From a virus (lineage: Duplodnaviria; Caudoviricetes), in IMG/VR virus record IMGVR_UViG_2917791510_000001, positions 1 through 64,000 of that record: DNA of 64,000 nt; one strand, given 5' to 3'. Of the stretch, positions 3,661 through 64,000 are shown piece by piece. A program made the translations under genes and the position numbers. The notes beneath the pieces are model-generated. The model was given only the letters and a program-made list of their open reading frames with translations. It was not told where the DNA came from and did not search any database. The number at the start of each line of letters is the position of its first letter. Position 1 is the stretch's first letter.

Positions 3661-3873
3661 TCAGCGGCCGTGGATGCAGAACTCCCGACGGAACCGGGAG
3701 ATGGTGTACCCCGTGCGGGGCAGTTCGGCGGCCGTGGTGTCGATGACGTACCAGCGCCTCGGACCCCGGCCGCGCGTCACTTCGGTGTCGTCGTTGTACG
3801 GCTCCAGCCGGTAACGGCCGTCGTTGGTCTCGTACACCCCGCCACCGAGGCGCTTGAGGGTCCGGGCGGTCAT
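3661..3873 (-). CDS. Hypothetical protein (MTARTLKRLGGG...)
   Basis: TGATG coupling with the upstream gene; ends at a hairpin cassette. Confidence 0.6.
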   Translation of the reverse strand: MTARTLKRLGGGVYETNDGRYRLEPYNDDTEVTRGRGPRRWYVIDTTAAELPRTGYTISRFRREFCIHGR

Positions 3874-4112
3874 CAGCCAACCCTCATCGGGCGGGCGTTG
3901 CTCTCGTCGGCCTCCGTGGCGTTCCTCTCCACACGTTCCGCGAGGTGGTGCGCCATCTCCGGGTCGATCTCGATGTAGACCACGCGGCCTTCGTGCGTCT
4001 CGGGATCCACGATGCGCGCCTGGAGATAGACCACCCTCTTGCCGCTGGTGGCGGAGAGACGGTTGCCCCATCCGGTCAGGCGCGCGGTCCACGGTTTCAT
4101 GCGTCCGGCCAT
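3873..4112 (-). CDS. Hypothetical protein
   Basis: Fills the operon; SD-like GAGGA upstream. Confidence 0.6.
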   Translation of the reverse strand: MAGRMKPWTARLTGWGNRLSATSGKRVVYLQARIVDPETHEGRVVYIEIDPEMAHHLAERVERNATEADESNARPMRVG

Positions 4113-4114
4113 CG

Positions 4115-4333
4115 TCAGTCGTCCTCATCTTCCTCGGTGAAGCACTCCTCACAACCGTCCTTGGGCTGCTCCTCGTGATCCGGGCACAGCTCCTTGACGG
4201 TCAGGTCGTCGGCTTCCTCGCCGTCCTCGGTGATGAGCCGCTGGCGCTCGGTCTCAGTCTCGCCGGTGGAGTAGCACGGGGCGTAGATGCAGCCGCCGGC
4301 GGATTCACTGAAGATCCCGTATTCAGCGCTCAT
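4115..4333 (-). CDS. Small acidic Cys-containing protein
   Basis: GACCAAGGAA plus GAGGA SD upstream. Confidence 0.7.
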   Translation of the reverse strand: MSAEYGIFSESAGGCIYAPCYSTGETETERQRLITEDGEEADDLTVKELCPDHEEQPKDGCEECFTEEDEDD

Positions 4334-4354
4334 GGTCGGTTCCTCGTTCCTTGG

Positions 4355-4915
4355 TCAGCGGGTGAAGCGGTCGGCGACGGCCCAGCGCAGTTCCTTCAGG
4401 GCCTGCCGCTTGTTGGGGATCGGGTCGCCGTAGCTGAGTCCGCCGCCCGTGCTCACGACCCACCCGGAGAAACTGGCGCCTTCGCTCTTGTAGAAGCGCG
4501 TTGCTTCCCCGATCAATTCGACCTCGTACGGCAAGTCGGTGCGCAGGATGTTCTCCAGGGCTTCGGCCGGGTCCACGGTCGGGTCGGAGCACCACACGGC
4601 GGTGACGAAGTTGCCCTCGTCGACGTACTGCACGTTCTCGGCGTTGTACGAGCGGCGGGCGGGCTTCTCGGTGACGATCCTGCGGACGTCGCGGGAGTGC
4701 CATTCAACGACGTCCTTGCGCAGGACAGCGGAGTCGGGCTTGTAGGAGGCCGGGTCACCGCAGACCACCCGGACCGTCTTCGCGGTGACCTTGGTGACCA
4801 CTCCGGTGCGCGAGTACAGGCCGCGTCCGTTGAACCCGGTTTCCCGGGTCATGAATTGGAGGCGGTCGCCCACGTGCACGTTGCTGGGGTTGACACCCTC
4901 GTAGGTCTCGCTCAT
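4355..4915 (-). CDS. Hypothetical early protein
   Basis: ATG at 4915 after SD GAGGAA and the promoter/operator at 4949-4985. Confidence 0.7.
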   Translation of the reverse strand: MSETYEGVNPSNVHVGDRLQFMTRETGFNGRGLYSRTGVVTKVTAKTVRVVCGDPASYKPDSAVLRKDVVEWHSRDVRRIVTEKPARRSYNAENVQYVDEGNFVTAVWCSDPTVDPAEALENILRTDLPYEVELIGEATRFYKSEGASFSGWVVSTGGGLSYGDPIPNKRQALKELRWAVADRFTR

Positions 4916-59757: not shown

Positions 59758-61551
59758 GTGCCGGAGCCGGAGCTTTTTACCGCACCTGACGACCTCTCCC
59801 TGGTGGGCGAGGCCGAGCTGCGTGAGCTGGAGACGAGTGCGGTCGCGGAGTTCGACCGCATCTCGGGACTCCAGCACATCACCCCCGACCACATCACCTA
59901 CTCCCAGCGCCTGACCCGCGACCTGGACCGGCTGCGCGCCGAGCTGCGCGTACGTGCCGTCCGTGCCGAAGAGCAGGCCGCCACCGCGCAGCAGGAGGCG
60001 ACCCGCCAGATGGCCCTCCTGCGCCAGTCCGTCCACGCCGGCGAAGGCGAGGGCGGCGACGGTGCCGGCGGCGAGGCTGCTGTCCCGGCCGTCACCGCAG
60101 GCGGGCGCCTCGACATGGCCGCGCTGACCGAGGCCATGGCCCGGGGCATGGTCACCGCGCTGTACGGCGAGGACGCCCCGGAGCCGGTGCGCCGCCGCGT
60201 CGCCTCCCTGTCGCAGGTCCGCGAGCGGGCCCCGCAGGCCAAGGTTCCGGACGCGACGATGGCCGTGACGGCATCCGTCGACATCCCCGGCGTCGCGGCC
60301 GGGCAGTCCATGCCGACGCTGGAGGCCCTCGGCGAGGCATTCCGTGCCAAGGCGAAGGCCATCCCCACCACGCAGTACGGCGAGCGGGGCGCCCCGCGTC
60401 ACCTGGTCGCGAGCGTCCGCAACCAGTTCGATCACACCGTGGACGACAGGACGTCGGCGAGCACCATCGAGGAACTGTGGCACTCGATGACGCAGGAGGG
60501 CGGCAAGGCTGAAGCCCTGCTCGCCGGTGGTGGCTGGTGCGCTCCGTCGCAGATCAGCTACGAGTTCTTCAACATCGCTGACGCCCCCTCCGGGCTCATC
60601 GACCTGCCGACCGTCGGCGTCAGCCGTGGCGGCATCCGCTACCCGGTCAGCCCCGCCATCGGTGACGTGTTCTTCCAGGCGGGCGGGTCCAACCCGGCCA
60701 CCGGTATGGGCGGCTTCGCGGCCACCTTCTCCAACGCGTCCGACCCGTGGCTGTGGACCGAGACGGACGACATCCTCACCGTCACCGGATCCGTCAACAA
60801 GCCGACCCTGCGCGTGCCGTGCCCCACGTTCAACGAAACCCGGCTCGAGGCCTACGGCATCTCGCTGACGGCGGGCAACCTGACGGACGACGCGTACCCG
60901 GAGGCGACGCAGAACTTCATCCGCCTGCTGCGCGCCGCGTACGCCCACACCATCAACGCCCGGAAGATCAGCCTCATGGTGGCGGCGTCCACGTCCGCGA
61001 TCACGTTCGGCGCGGGCACGTCCCCGGCCACACAGACGCTGCTGAGCGGTGTGGAGCTGGCCGCGATCGACTACCGGGCCAAGTTCGGCATGCGCGAGGA
61101 CGCGGTCCTCGAAGTCGTCCTGCCGGTATGGGTGCTCGCCGTCATCCGGGCCGACCTCGCATGGCGGACCAACGTGGAGCGCGAGTCGGTGTCGAACGCG
61201 CAGATCATGTCGTGGTTCACCGACCGGGCCGTGCGTCCTCAGTTCGTCTCCGACTGGCAGGTGCGCGGTGCGGGCCAGTTCGGCAACGTCGGATCGAACA
61301 AGACGTCCTGGCCCACCTCGGCGGACTTCCTCATGTACGCGGCCGGCACGTTCCTGCACGGCAACGGCCTCCAGCTCGACCTCGGCGTGATCCGCGACAG
61401 CGTCCTGAACGCGGAGAACGACTACACGGCGCTCTGGGCCGAGGAAGCGCACCTGATCGCCAAGGTCGGCCACGAGTCCCGCCGCTACACCGTCACCTTC
61501 GCGGTCGACGGCGCCGGTACCGCCGGTATCGCTGCCGCCGCGCAGATCTGA
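59758..61551 (+). CDS. Major capsid protein with N-terminal scaffold-like coiled coil
   Basis: ALLAGGGWCAPS..YEF, IDLP....RGGI; late-type promoter at 59690. Confidence 0.85.
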   Translation: MPEPELFTAPDDLSLVGEAELRELETSAVAEFDRISGLQHITPDHITYSQRLTRDLDRLRAELRVRAVRAEEQAATAQQEATRQMALLRQSVHAGEGEGGDGAGGEAAVPAVTAGGRLDMAALTEAMARGMVTALYGEDAPEPVRRRVASLSQVRERAPQAKVPDATMAVTASVDIPGVAAGQSMPTLEALGEAFRAKAKAIPTTQYGERGAPRHLVASVRNQFDHTVDDRTSASTIEELWHSMTQEGGKAEALLAGGGWCAPSQISYEFFNIADAPSGLIDLPTVGVSRGGIRYPVSPAIGDVFFQAGGSNPATGMGGFAATFSNASDPWLWTETDDILTVTGSVNKPTLRVPCPTFNETRLEAYGISLTAGNLTDDAYPEATQNFIRLLRAAYAHTINARKISLMVAASTSAITFGAGTSPATQTLLSGVELAAIDYRAKFGMREDAVLEVVLPVWVLAVIRADLAWRTNVERESVSNAQIMSWFTDRAVRPQFVSDWQVRGAGQFGNVGSNKTSWPTSADFLMYAAGTFLHGNGLQLDLGVIRDSVLNAENDYTALWAEEAHLIAKVGHESRRYTVTFAVDGAGTAGIAAAAQI

Positions 61552-61587
61552 TCCGTGACCGCACCGGCCGTGAAGGGAGCGTGACTC

Positions 61588-62490
61588 GTGGCAGGAATCC
61601 GGGACATAGTCGACGGCCCCGCCTTCGTCGCGCTCCCCAACGCACTGTGGGACGTCGCCCAGCATCCCGTGCCGGGCGGCCCGCACTGGCAGCAGGGCGT
61701 CACCTGGGAGGAATGGTGCGGCGGCGGCGGCACCCTCATGGACGAGTGCCTCGCCGTCACCGGCACCGGGGGCGCTCCCGCCCCGCAGACGTCGATGACG
61801 GGTGGCGTCACTCAGACCAACCGGGGAGCGACCGCGTTCACGGTGTTCGCCGAGTTCGACTGCTCGGCCGTCGGCCAGGATCTGGAGCGCAACCAGGCCG
61901 AGGAGGCGCTGCTGCGCACGGAGGCCTGGCAGGTGTCCCGGGCGTTCTGGACCGGCCAGGCGGGCACCACGGCGGGCGGGGCGGCCACCACGGTCTGGCC
62001 CCACCTGGCGGCGAACGCCGTGCTGAACGACCCGCAGGGCATCAAGCTCCAGACGGCCGCCAGCCCGATGGTCACCGGCGGGGACGACACGGCCGTGGTC
62101 CTCGGCGCGCTGGAATCGCAGCTCGCCGCCTGCTACGGGGGTGTGGGTGTCATCCACGTCCCCTACGCCGCGCTCCCGTCGTTCGCTTCGCGGATGCTGG
62201 TCAAGCAGGGCGATGACGGACTGCTGCGCACCACGGCGGGAAACGTCGTGGTCGCCGGGCAGGGGTACACCGGGTCCGGGCCCGACGGCTCGGCACCCGC
62301 CGCCGGCACGTCGTGGATCTACGCCACCGGCGCGCTGTTCGCGTACCGGAGCGACGTGTTCGTGAGGGACTTCCCCGGCACGCTCGACAGGACCAAGAAC
62401 ACCATCCGCAAAATCGCCAGCCGTACGTACTTGGTTGGTTTTGAATGTTGTCATCTCGCGGCACTCCTGAACCTGGGGGTGCCGACATGA
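61588..62490 (+). CDS. Second capsid-associated protein (possible pentamer capsid protein)
   Basis: Follows the major capsid gene; W..GV..C, T..GN.VV.G.GY, WIYATG. Confidence 0.6.
   Translation: MAGIRDIVDGPAFVALPNALWDVAQHPVPGGPHWQQGVTWEEWCGGGGTLMDECLAVTGTGGAPAPQTSMTGGVTQTNRGATAFTVFAEFDCSAVGQDLERNQAEEALLRTEAWQVSRAFWTGQAGTTAGGAATTVWPHLAANAVLNDPQGIKLQTAASPMVTGGDDTAVVLGALESQLAACYGGVGVIHVPYAALPSFASRMLVKQGDDGLLRTTAGNVVVAGQGYTGSGPDGSAPAAGTSWIYATGALFAYRSDVFVRDFPGTLDRTKNTIRKIASRTYLVGFECCHLAALLNLGVPT
62446..62490 (+). repeat. Recoded copy of the gene 3' end (CCHLAALLNLGVPT-stop), copy 1
   Basis: Same peptide as 63099-63143; 13 of 15 codons differ synonymously. Confidence 0.9.
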
Positions 62491-62495
62491 CAGCC

Positions 62496-63071
62496 CTACG
62501 TGGAGCGCGTCCTCCGCTGGCCGCTGCGAATCTTGCTGACCGTGGTGGGGTGGCAACCCAGGCGCGCGGCAATGGCCTTGTTCGTCTCGGGGCTGCTCCG
62601 GATCTCTTGGACAACCTCGTCCGGGATCCAGAATTGCGGAATTTGGGCTCCGTGTGCGGTCCGACCGTGCCGTTCTCGGTCTTCGGCATTCTCCTGCGCG
62701 GTCCCCGCCCGGATGTGAAGCGGGTTGACGCACGGCGGATTTCCACAGCTATGCCGTGTGTGGCCGCCCGGCGGGGGCAACTCGCGTCCGGTGAGGATCA
62801 GTACGGCCCGGCACAAGTACATCTTGTGCCCGTTGATCCTCACCGCGCCGTAACCGCCGTTCCCCGGATGGAACGGGTGCAGGACACACTCGTCAGTCGG
62901 GTGCTCGGCAAGGTGCTTGAGCGTTTCGCGCAGCCATTGCAGGACCGAGCCACGCCAAGGACCGCCCGCCAGGGGGTCCCCGTACTTGTGGTTCCGCGTG
63001 TAGTGCGGTTGGCAGAAGCCCTTGGCGTAGTACGCCCGGGTGCACCCGTTTATCGTGCAAGATCTCCCCAT
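62496..63071 (-). CDS. Free-standing HNH homing endonuclease
   Basis: C.INGC...AKGFC..HY Zn finger; RHSCGNPPCVNPLH..GT..EN; C-terminal HTH; TATAAT 6 nt upstream. Confidence 0.88.
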   Translation of the reverse strand: MGRSCTINGCTRAYYAKGFCQPHYTRNHKYGDPLAGGPWRGSVLQWLRETLKHLAEHPTDECVLHPFHPGNGGYGAVRINGHKMYLCRAVLILTGRELPPPGGHTRHSCGNPPCVNPLHIRAGTAQENAEDRERHGRTAHGAQIPQFWIPDEVVQEIRSSPETNKAIAARLGCHPTTVSKIRSGQRRTRST

Positions 63072-63098
63072 TCGCCCATTATAGCTAACGGCAAAGTG

Positions 63099-63143
63099 TG
63101 CTGTCACCTGGCAGCGCTGCTCAACCTCGGCGTTCCCACCTAA
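63099..63143 (+). repeat. Displaced 3' end of the upstream gene, copy 2
   Basis: Encodes CCHLAALLNLGVPT-stop and is followed by the SD of the tail gene. Confidence 0.9.
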
Positions 63144-63157
63144 GGGGTGAACAACTC

Positions 63158-63856
63158 GTGACTTCAACCGTGGCCTCTGCGGTAACCCCCATCAAGGGGA
63201 CGCACTACCGCATCATCAAACTCGACGCGTGCGGCAACCCGGTCACCGGAACCGGCAGCATGGTCGTGGTGTCCAAGGGCTTCGTCCAGGTGCAGATGGA
63301 CGCGCAGTACGAGGACGGCACTGAGTTCGTCGAGCGGACGGCGGACGGCACGCTGTGCGTCAACCAGAAGGACAACCCGGTCCTCAAGCGCATGCAGCTC
63401 CAGATCGACTTCTGCGAGATCAACAGCACCGGCGCCTCGTACCTCGCCTCCGCCCGTGAACTGACCGCCAACGCGGCAGGCATCACGGGTCTCGGCTTCG
63501 CCTTCTCCGAGGGCTCACCGACCAACCGGTACTCCCTCGAGGTCTGGCAGCGGGTGGCCGGCTCCGGAGCCTGCGACCCGACCGGCCTCCAGCGCTACAT
63601 CTACAACGCGTGGCCCAACTGCGGCGCCACCAAGGTGGGCCAGTACACGATCCAGAACGGGCGGTCCACGTTCCAGATCACGTCCGAGACACAGGCGGCC
63701 TCCGCCGCCCCGACAATCGGCTGGGGTGACGGCCCCGGATCGGGGGCGACCTGGCTGCCTACGGGCGAGGTAGTGCAGTCGCTGGACCACTGGCTGTGGG
63801 CCGTCACCACGACACCGCCGCCGAACCCGTCGACCAACCCGACCACCCTGAGCTGA
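63158..63856 (+). CDS. Major tail (tube) protein-like
   Basis: KLDACG.P, E.G.E...A.G.LC, SLEVW; position after the head genes. Confidence 0.65.
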   Translation: MTSTVASAVTPIKGTHYRIIKLDACGNPVTGTGSMVVVSKGFVQVQMDAQYEDGTEFVERTADGTLCVNQKDNPVLKRMQLQIDFCEINSTGASYLASARELTANAAGITGLGFAFSEGSPTNRYSLEVWQRVAGSGACDPTGLQRYIYNAWPNCGATKVGQYTIQNGRSTFQITSETQAASAAPTIGWGDGPGSGATWLPTGEVVQSLDHWLWAVTTTPPPNPSTNPTTLS

Positions 63857-63857
63857 C

Positions 63858-64000
63858 GTGATCCTGACGGGCGAGCAGCACTGGGTCTGCCCTAACTGTG
63901 ACTTGCAGGAGCGGACCCAGAATCAGGGCAACCGGTTCCACCCCTGTCCGGGGCTCGCCGGGCTGCTCGCTCCGATGGTCCTGGACGGGGTGCGCTGCCG
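63858..64000 (+). CDS. Partial CDS (W.CPNC..FHPCPGL), runs off window
   Basis: GTG 1 nt after the previous stop; frame stays open to the end. Confidence 0.5.
   Translation, partial: MILTGEQHWVCPNCDLQERTQNQGNRFHPCPGLAGLLAPMVLDGVRC

Follow-up and report, generated by a model that had tools for sequence, protein, structure and literature searches.

A probable replacement-end homing cassette with an antisense HNH endonuclease gene at the 3' end of a phage capsid gene

In fungal mitochondria, mORFs enter near the 3' end of an essential gene, supply an in-frame substitute for the C-terminal coding segment and leave the native C-terminus displaced downstream. Examples are atp6 of Allomyces macrogynus and the atp6, atp9, cox2 and nad3 "gene hybrids" of Glomus sp., and the atp6 copies share 63.5% nucleotide identity and 91% amino acid identity (PMC3630166). 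WHO elements at the FBA1 gene of the yeasts Torulaspora and Lachancea consist of an endonuclease gene together with a resistance-conferring 3' part of this essential gene; the old FBA1 end lies downstream as a homology arm, and the target region is under diversifying pressure (PMC7282813; bioRxiv 10.64898/2026.08.13.744650). In phage T4, the free-standing Seg and Mob nucleases, the latter of the HNH type, spread by double-strand-break repair in mixed infections (PMC2988022), and neither a replacement end nor a duplicated terminus is mentioned in this review of T4 homing.

We here describe a locus in a metagenome-derived IMG/VR virus record of 98.8 kb, of which the first 64,000 nucleotides form the window. 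As in mORFs, an endonuclease ORF is associated with an in-frame substitute gene end, the native end is located downstream, and the two copies are similar at the protein level and diverged at the DNA level; as in WHO elements, the unit comprises a nuclease gene and the 3' part of a host gene, with resistance in the present case being a prediction. We consider it probable that the locus harbours a free-standing homing-endonuclease cassette of a replacement-end type, composed of a re-spelled gene end, an HNH gene and the promoter of the latter. A literature search for a phage account of homing by a replacement-end design returned no published example.

Host gene X and the antisense HNH gene

On the plus strand around the insertion, the major capsid gene is followed by a second gene, referred to here as X, and then by the gene for the major tail protein (Table 1). 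An AlphaFold model of X, with a mean pLDDT of 66.8 and a low-confidence N-terminus, gave 114 Foldseek matches in the PDB at E ≤ 1e-3. The matches were led by LME-1, HK97 and the Mycofy1 cap (C5 cap), and all of those listed were HK97-fold capsids or encapsulins. X was also found to be 28% identical (E = 7e-8) to the "major capsid pentamer protein" of the Mycobacterium phage Mycofy2, which is encoded beside the hexamer gene, and its relatives among INPHARED phages were distant only (identity of 32% or less). The model indicates that X is an HK97-fold capsid paralogue; X is a capsid gene of a Streptomyces-type phage and probably encodes the major capsid pentamer protein. The insertion had originally been predicted to lie in a structural gene, and both the fold and the phrog assignment of X agree with that view.

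Table 1. Coordinates of the features of the locus, given as window positions
Feature	Position	Strand	Sequence elements or match
Major capsid gene, 597 aa	59758-61551	+	phrog_777, E=7e-118
Host gene X, now hybrid: native body (codons 1-281), putatively cassette-borne codons 282-300 and stop	61588..62490	+	phrog_779, E=5e-40
Five recoded codons (LVGFE, including Val283) without downstream copy	62431..62445	+	
R', functional recoded last 14 codons (287-300 of X) and TGA stop	62446..62490	+	
HNH (predicted His-Me finger) endonuclease gene, 191 aa, C-terminal helix-turn-helix	ATG 63071, stop 62496-62498	-	
HNH promoter, -35 within R	63078..63107	-	GTGACA 63107-63102, TATAAT 63083-63078
R, relic: displaced native last 14 codons and TAA stop	63099..63143	+	match to uninterrupted alleles
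Native SD GGGGTG (63144-63149) and major tail protein gene (GTG 63158)	63144..63856	+	phrog_792, E=3e-35
Open frame antisense and in register to HNH, of doubtful function	62487..63143	+	open in three lineages

Within X, the first Cys of the C-terminal CC pair (62446-62451) is invariant among 36 aligned homologues. The related loci L012-L021, L053 and L057 have a C-A or C-V motif where X of the window has C-C, and their comparison with the region 59758-63856 gave an identity of ~80% for the major capsid protein and ~75% for the tail protein but only ~62% for X. These sequence comparisons indicate that the history of X differs from that of its neighbour genes, with mosaicism around X. We considered the possibility that the cassette is aimed at the single most conserved stretch of X and rejected it, as the 3' end is more conserved than the gene is on average without being its top window. 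A small ORF is present in a stretch of ~400 bp between the major capsid gene and X in L041 (positions 2698-2958, 86 aa), L005, L034, L036, L051 and L056 and is not found in the window. This extra DNA in L041 was considered as a second nuclease and was dismissed, with no nuclease similarity seen for the 86-aa ORF.

The last 14 codons of X together with the stop codon are encoded twice, with the HNH gene, in the opposite orientation, lying between the upstream copy (R') and the downstream copy (R). Each copy encodes CCHLAALLNLGVPT and ends in a stop codon. The spelling differs between the copies at 12 of the 14 sense codons and at the stop (TGA versus TAA), and every one of these differences is synonymous. 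R' continues the reading frame of X as an in-frame substitute 3' end, and its stop codon is separated by 5 nt from that of the convergent HNH gene. R, the displaced end, directly adjoins GGGGTG, followed by the GTG start codon of the tail gene, and the TAA-GGGGTG junction is also found in uninterrupted relatives. The duplication of 14 codons and a stop around an antisense HNH gene, the identical peptides encoded with 13 of 15 codons different, and retention of the tail-gene SD at the downstream copy had all been predicted originally, and each was confirmed by direct reading of the sequence or by comparison with these relatives. After one arginine-rich low-complexity pair was set aside, R'/R was the sole peptide-level direct repeat of at least nine residues with low DNA identity (19-20/27) in the 98.8-kb genome.

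The HNH protein matched phrog_59, "HNH endonuclease" (E = 1.5e-20). In an alignment with PF13392-bearing homologues, residues H107, C109, C114, N116, H119 and N128, which form the HNH_3 signature, were invariant, and this pattern predicts the beta-beta-alpha-metal motif of an HNH, or His-Me finger, nuclease (HNH_3, PF13392); the protein itself scored 16.4 bits for PF13392 (cutoff of 24.8) and 21.3 for PF05551 (cutoff of 27). The best PDB match of its structure model was I-HmuI (1u3e), with a moderate Z of 5.6 and an rmsd of 3.2 Å over 80 residues at 22% identity, and I-PpoI was the next-best fold, with Z ranging from 5.1 to 5.6 for these two enzymes. A PDB search with the sequence of the protein gave no meaningful match. 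Its C-terminal 50 residues resemble helix-turn-helix DNA-binding domains. The dN/dS ratio of the HNH gene was 0.30 in comparison with L077 and 0.19 in comparison with L041, two related loci described below; the gene is intact and under purifying selection.

Upstream of the HNH gene, GTGACA, a spacer of 18 nt, TATAAT, a further 6 nt and the ATG start codon form a promoter of leaderless layout, which matches the consensus at 11 of 12 positions (0.2 such matches expected in shuffled sequences). The counterparts of the -10 element are TATAGT in L077 and TATACT in L041, each located 6 nt from the start codon. The element had been proposed to be free of splicing, and a group I or group II intron or an intein can be set aside in its case: no intron RNA family was detected with Rfam at E ≤ 1 in the region 61500-63900, the HNH gene is antisense to X, and the frame of X stops before the HNH gene.

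Uninterrupted alleles and the origin of the two gene ends

We compared the locus with 57 related loci from IMG/VR. In 55 of these relatives, the stop codon of X lies ~10-50 nt from the tail gene and no HNH gene is present, so that uninterrupted alleles, on whose existence the original prediction depended, do exist. The same site is thus empty in these 55 and occupied in the window, in L041 and in L077. In L041, X and the HNH protein are 55% and 59% identical, respectively, to those of the window, and the order of elements is a recoded end, TGA, 5 nt, the convergent HNH stop, the HNH gene, a 27-nt spacer, the native end and the tail gene. The R'/R pair of L041 encodes CCLLATLINLGVPT followed by S or A, with 11 of 14 codons differing. 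L077 is a metagenome contig that ends inside the HNH gene (74% identical over 86 residues), and it contains the HNH promoter, the relic and the tail gene, with the 27-nt promoter spacer being of equal length in all three loci. The arrangement therefore recurs in three lineages, one of which is truncated.

Relatives of the HNH protein closer than 35% identity were otherwise rare, being limited to one cluster of identical sequences and two proteins (P0122 and P0123) at 64-66%; the identical protein is recorded from 4 contigs. Among INPHARED phages, only distant relatives were found (35% identity or less), and a profile search of the genome contigs with the HNH alignment gave no match. Scanning for DNA patterns of the promoter-relic and R'-HNH junctions yielded only the L041 contig and three unrelated low-GC contigs, and a peptide-repeat screen of other HNH loci yielded only the L041 pair. 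A repeat in L070 (3351-5357, minus strand) was considered as a nuclease-flanking duplication and was rejected, as it corresponds to two adjacent paralogous genes. The two products (376 and 242 aa) are homologous in their C-terminal domain (NGYYTWPRMG...KFDL..GSRSM).

Alignment with insertion-free homologues, which had been suggested as a check, distinguished the two copies. The closest uninterrupted allele, L002, whose X is 85% identical to that of the window, matched R at 38 of 42 nt and R' at 31 of 42. Mean codon identity to native alleles at sites with the same residue was 0.60 for R and 0.17 for R', and that of R' of L041 was 0.25, compared with 0.60 among the native alleles themselves. 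The codons GGG, CCG and ACA at positions 11, 13 and 14 of R' were found in none of 54 native loci. Given that R matches the native alleles and R' does not, we identify R as the native end in displaced position, R' having arrived with the insert. The altered block begins directly 3' of TAC (62428-62430).

The original prediction also described the five codons preceding R' (TTG GTT GGT TTT GAA) as AT-rich and unlike the rest of the gene. This description held for three of them; GGT and TTT also occur in L002, and only three of the five are therefore altered in the window. In L041, all five of the corresponding codons differ from those of its nearest relative. Val283, encoded within this block, is common to the cassette-bearing window and L041; it was found at none of the 54 native loci and, among the 120 homologues listed, only in P0001 and P0002, which are at least 97% identical to the window.

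A cluster of unusual codons, TAT GTA ... TGT TGT TTG CTG GCC, is present at the exact cassette site of the uninterrupted locus L030 (positions 3790-3880). The cluster resembles R', and beyond it the spelling is again that of the nearest relative, L037. From its sequence, the cluster could mark an allele that resists cleavage, or it could be what remained after recombination between R' and R removed a cassette.

Homing of the cassette and alternative explanations

The mobile unit would consist of the re-spelled last 19 codons and stop of X, the convergent HNH gene 5 nt further on and the leaderless HNH promoter, inserted between codon 281 of X and the native last 14 codons, which would have been pushed downstream. 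In a mixed infection, the nuclease would cut uninterrupted alleles near codons 282-288, and the break would be repaired from the cassette-bearing genome, with the body of X providing homology on the left and the native end and tail gene providing homology on the right; the recipient would gain the cassette through this repair. The capsid protein would remain full length because the cassette supplies its end. Maximal re-spelling would mean that this end is no longer a target of the nuclease and no longer a repeat able to recombine the cassette out. We infer the cleavage site, resistance and homing from the sequence, and the earlier interpretation of the locus as a homing element with a recoded terminus is supported in those of its parts that sequence comparison can address.

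The extent of re-spelling bears on the least improbable of the alternatives, which we regard as unlikely. In this explanation, R' is the ordinary 3' end of a divergent donor that carried the HNH gene between its capsid and tail genes, one-sided or illegitimate repair left the end of the recipient in place, and the synonymous differences reflect donor-recipient divergence rather than selection for re-spelling. The gene hybrids of Allomyces and Glomus are usually interpreted as such passive hitch-hiking (PMC3630166), and the derived states common to the R' copies of the window and L041 (GGG, CCG, ACA, Val283 and TGA, with GTG between GGG and CCG) would fit a single travelling sequence. The spelling of R', however, is unlike that of all 54 native loci, with the codon identities of 0.17 and 0.25 contrasting with the 0.60 of natives. 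The two pairs differ by 12 (window) and 11 (L041) synonymous codon changes without any change of residue at the 14 positions in common, whereas synonymous changes over this stretch reached a maximum of 8 in 1,431 pairwise comparisons of native alleles, and of 5 in the 71 comparisons in which the peptides were identical. In addition, both R' and R of L041 contain the residue combination LLATLIN, which is absent from every other allele of the data set and would not be expected from a distant donor. Each replacement end thus matches the peptide of its own host.

The number of identical codons was also compared with that expected from random re-encoding with phage codon usage. Two of the 14 codons are identical between R' and R in the window, compared with 6.9 expected (P = 2.4e-4), and 3 of 14 in L041, compared with 7.2 expected (P = 0.01). 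Re-spelling exceeds both random re-encoding and any natural divergence in the family. The proportion of AT-ending codons is 40% over the 20 terminal codons of X and 8% in the gene body; in X of L041, the two proportions are 38% and 15%. This codon pattern fits what would be expected if dissimilarity from the native end were itself selected, and the driving pressure may be nuclease resistance, repeat deletion or both. Given that the five recoded codons upstream of R' lack a downstream partner, they are not explained by protection from deletion alone, which argues for evasion of the target site; in sequence terms, they point to such evasion or to common descent of both R' blocks. The states shared by the two R' copies, each of which matches its own host peptide, may reflect common descent combined with tracking of the host peptide or independent local recoding, 14 codons being too few to separate the two.

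Divergence between the window and L077 bears on a further alternative, in which the insertion is old and immobile: it would have entered once in an ancestor and been inherited vertically with ongoing loss, the nuclease would be domesticated or idle, and the two copies of the gene end would have drifted apart in place. The dS values of 0.65 for the HNH gene and 0.52 for the tail gene are alike, so that inheritance by vertical descent, with losses, could account for some of the distribution of the cassette with no need for recent homing. The identity of the HNH protein to that of L041 (59%) is likewise near the 49-58% of the host genes. The relics of the window and L077, however, differ at only 6 of 42 nt, compared with ~16-18 expected if they were neutral at the dS of their neighbours (P ≤ 9e-4), with nearly all of the differences being synonymous or leading to residues present in native alleles, whereas decay would be expected of an idle remnant. 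Drift would also alter the unconstrained downstream copy and not, as found here, the constrained upstream copy. Moreover, the absence of the nuclease gene from 55 of 57 relatives shows that it has no essential role in the host, and the gene evolves under purifying selection. We therefore judge an immobile insertion to be very improbable. An assembly or chimera artefact, for which the metagenomic origin of the record might speak, is hardly credible, given that the same architecture is present in independent samples and lineages (L041 and L077), that the identical HNH protein comes from several contigs and that all frames are intact.

The displaced end is not decaying. If the locus is a homing cassette as proposed above, the relic may be renewed whenever the cassette homes into a fresh native allele; alternatively, it may be retained for a function as a homology arm, as the -35 element of the HNH promoter or as the leader of the tail gene. 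The relic provides the -35 element and would contain half of the nuclease target, so that bound nuclease could repress its own gene. I-TevI represses its own gene at its operator. An open frame that is antisense and in register to the HNH gene also spans the insert in the window and in L041 (positions 3861-4523), its start overlapping the stop of X and its end being the relic stop. The frame starts with ATGA in the window, 5 nt after a GGGGTG, and with TTGA in L041, with this spacing ranging from 5 to 8 nt. Recoding would have created the GGGGTG and the overlapping start, opening the frame through the whole HNH gene to terminate precisely at the native stop codon, next to the SD of the tail gene. 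A translational bridge of this kind would hold ribosomes on the late mRNA and shield expression of the tail gene from polarity across the 650-nt insert. The frame is open in the window, in L041 and in the available part of L077; the corresponding chances of openness are 0.36, 0.034 and 0.62, and these values lend weak support to a bridge. That both of these elements, the relic and the frame antisense to HNH, are functional rather than debris, the former mediating HNH autorepression and the latter serving as a translational bridge, is a doubtful proposal.

Comparison with known systems

The resemblance of the cassette to mORFs and WHO elements is one of design and not of ancestry, the nuclease in the present case being an HNH enzyme. 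The nucleases of mORFs are of the LAGLIDADG or GIY-YIG type, are mostly encoded in the same orientation as the host gene and often in phase with it, and reside in organelle genomes, whereas the present HNH gene is antisense, has its own promoter and resides in a phage. The duplicated piece also differs from that of mORFs in that it comprises only 14 codons, the peptides are 100% identical and synonymous change is near-maximal. WHO elements encode LAGLIDADG nucleases related to HO and VDE, are nuclear and undergo homing during meiosis; they replace one half of the host gene and form clusters of relics, whereas a single cassette was found here.

The locus shares with T4 intronless homing a free-standing phage nuclease, Mob likewise being an HNH enzyme. 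Elements of the T4 type, however, are located in intergenic positions or interrupt a gene so that it yields two polypeptides (nrdA, gene 39/60 and gene 43), whereas here a replacement end is provided (PMC2988022). I-HmuI of phage SPO1 similarly combines an HNH core with a separate DNA-binding module, but it is encoded within a group I intron, whereas the present enzyme is free-standing and only distantly related to it (the 22% identity noted above).

What is new relative to mORFs and WHO elements is the HNH nuclease, its antisense orientation, a leaderless promoter of its own that overlaps the relic, and unusually clean evidence of directed re-spelling. The locus suggests that phages, like fungal mitochondria and yeasts, host splicing-free homing elements that invade the ends of essential genes by means of a carried replacement end. 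It adds quantitative evidence that such an end is driven towards the greatest dissimilarity from the native end that the peptide permits, evidence of a displaced end that does not decay, and a compact antisense design in which a leaderless promoter is built in part on that end. The locus further draws attention to one way in which phage capsid genes come to be mis-annotated and evolve as chimeras, and it offers a small, clean system for measurement of target recognition and resistance for an HNH homing enzyme.

Synthetic "cleave-and-rescue" and "home-and-rescue" drives link a nuclease directed at an essential gene to a rescue copy of its target that is recoded and resists cleavage. These drives are engineered and RNA-guided, whereas the present cassette is natural and protein-guided, and its re-spelled gene end would be the natural counterpart of their recoded rescue copy.
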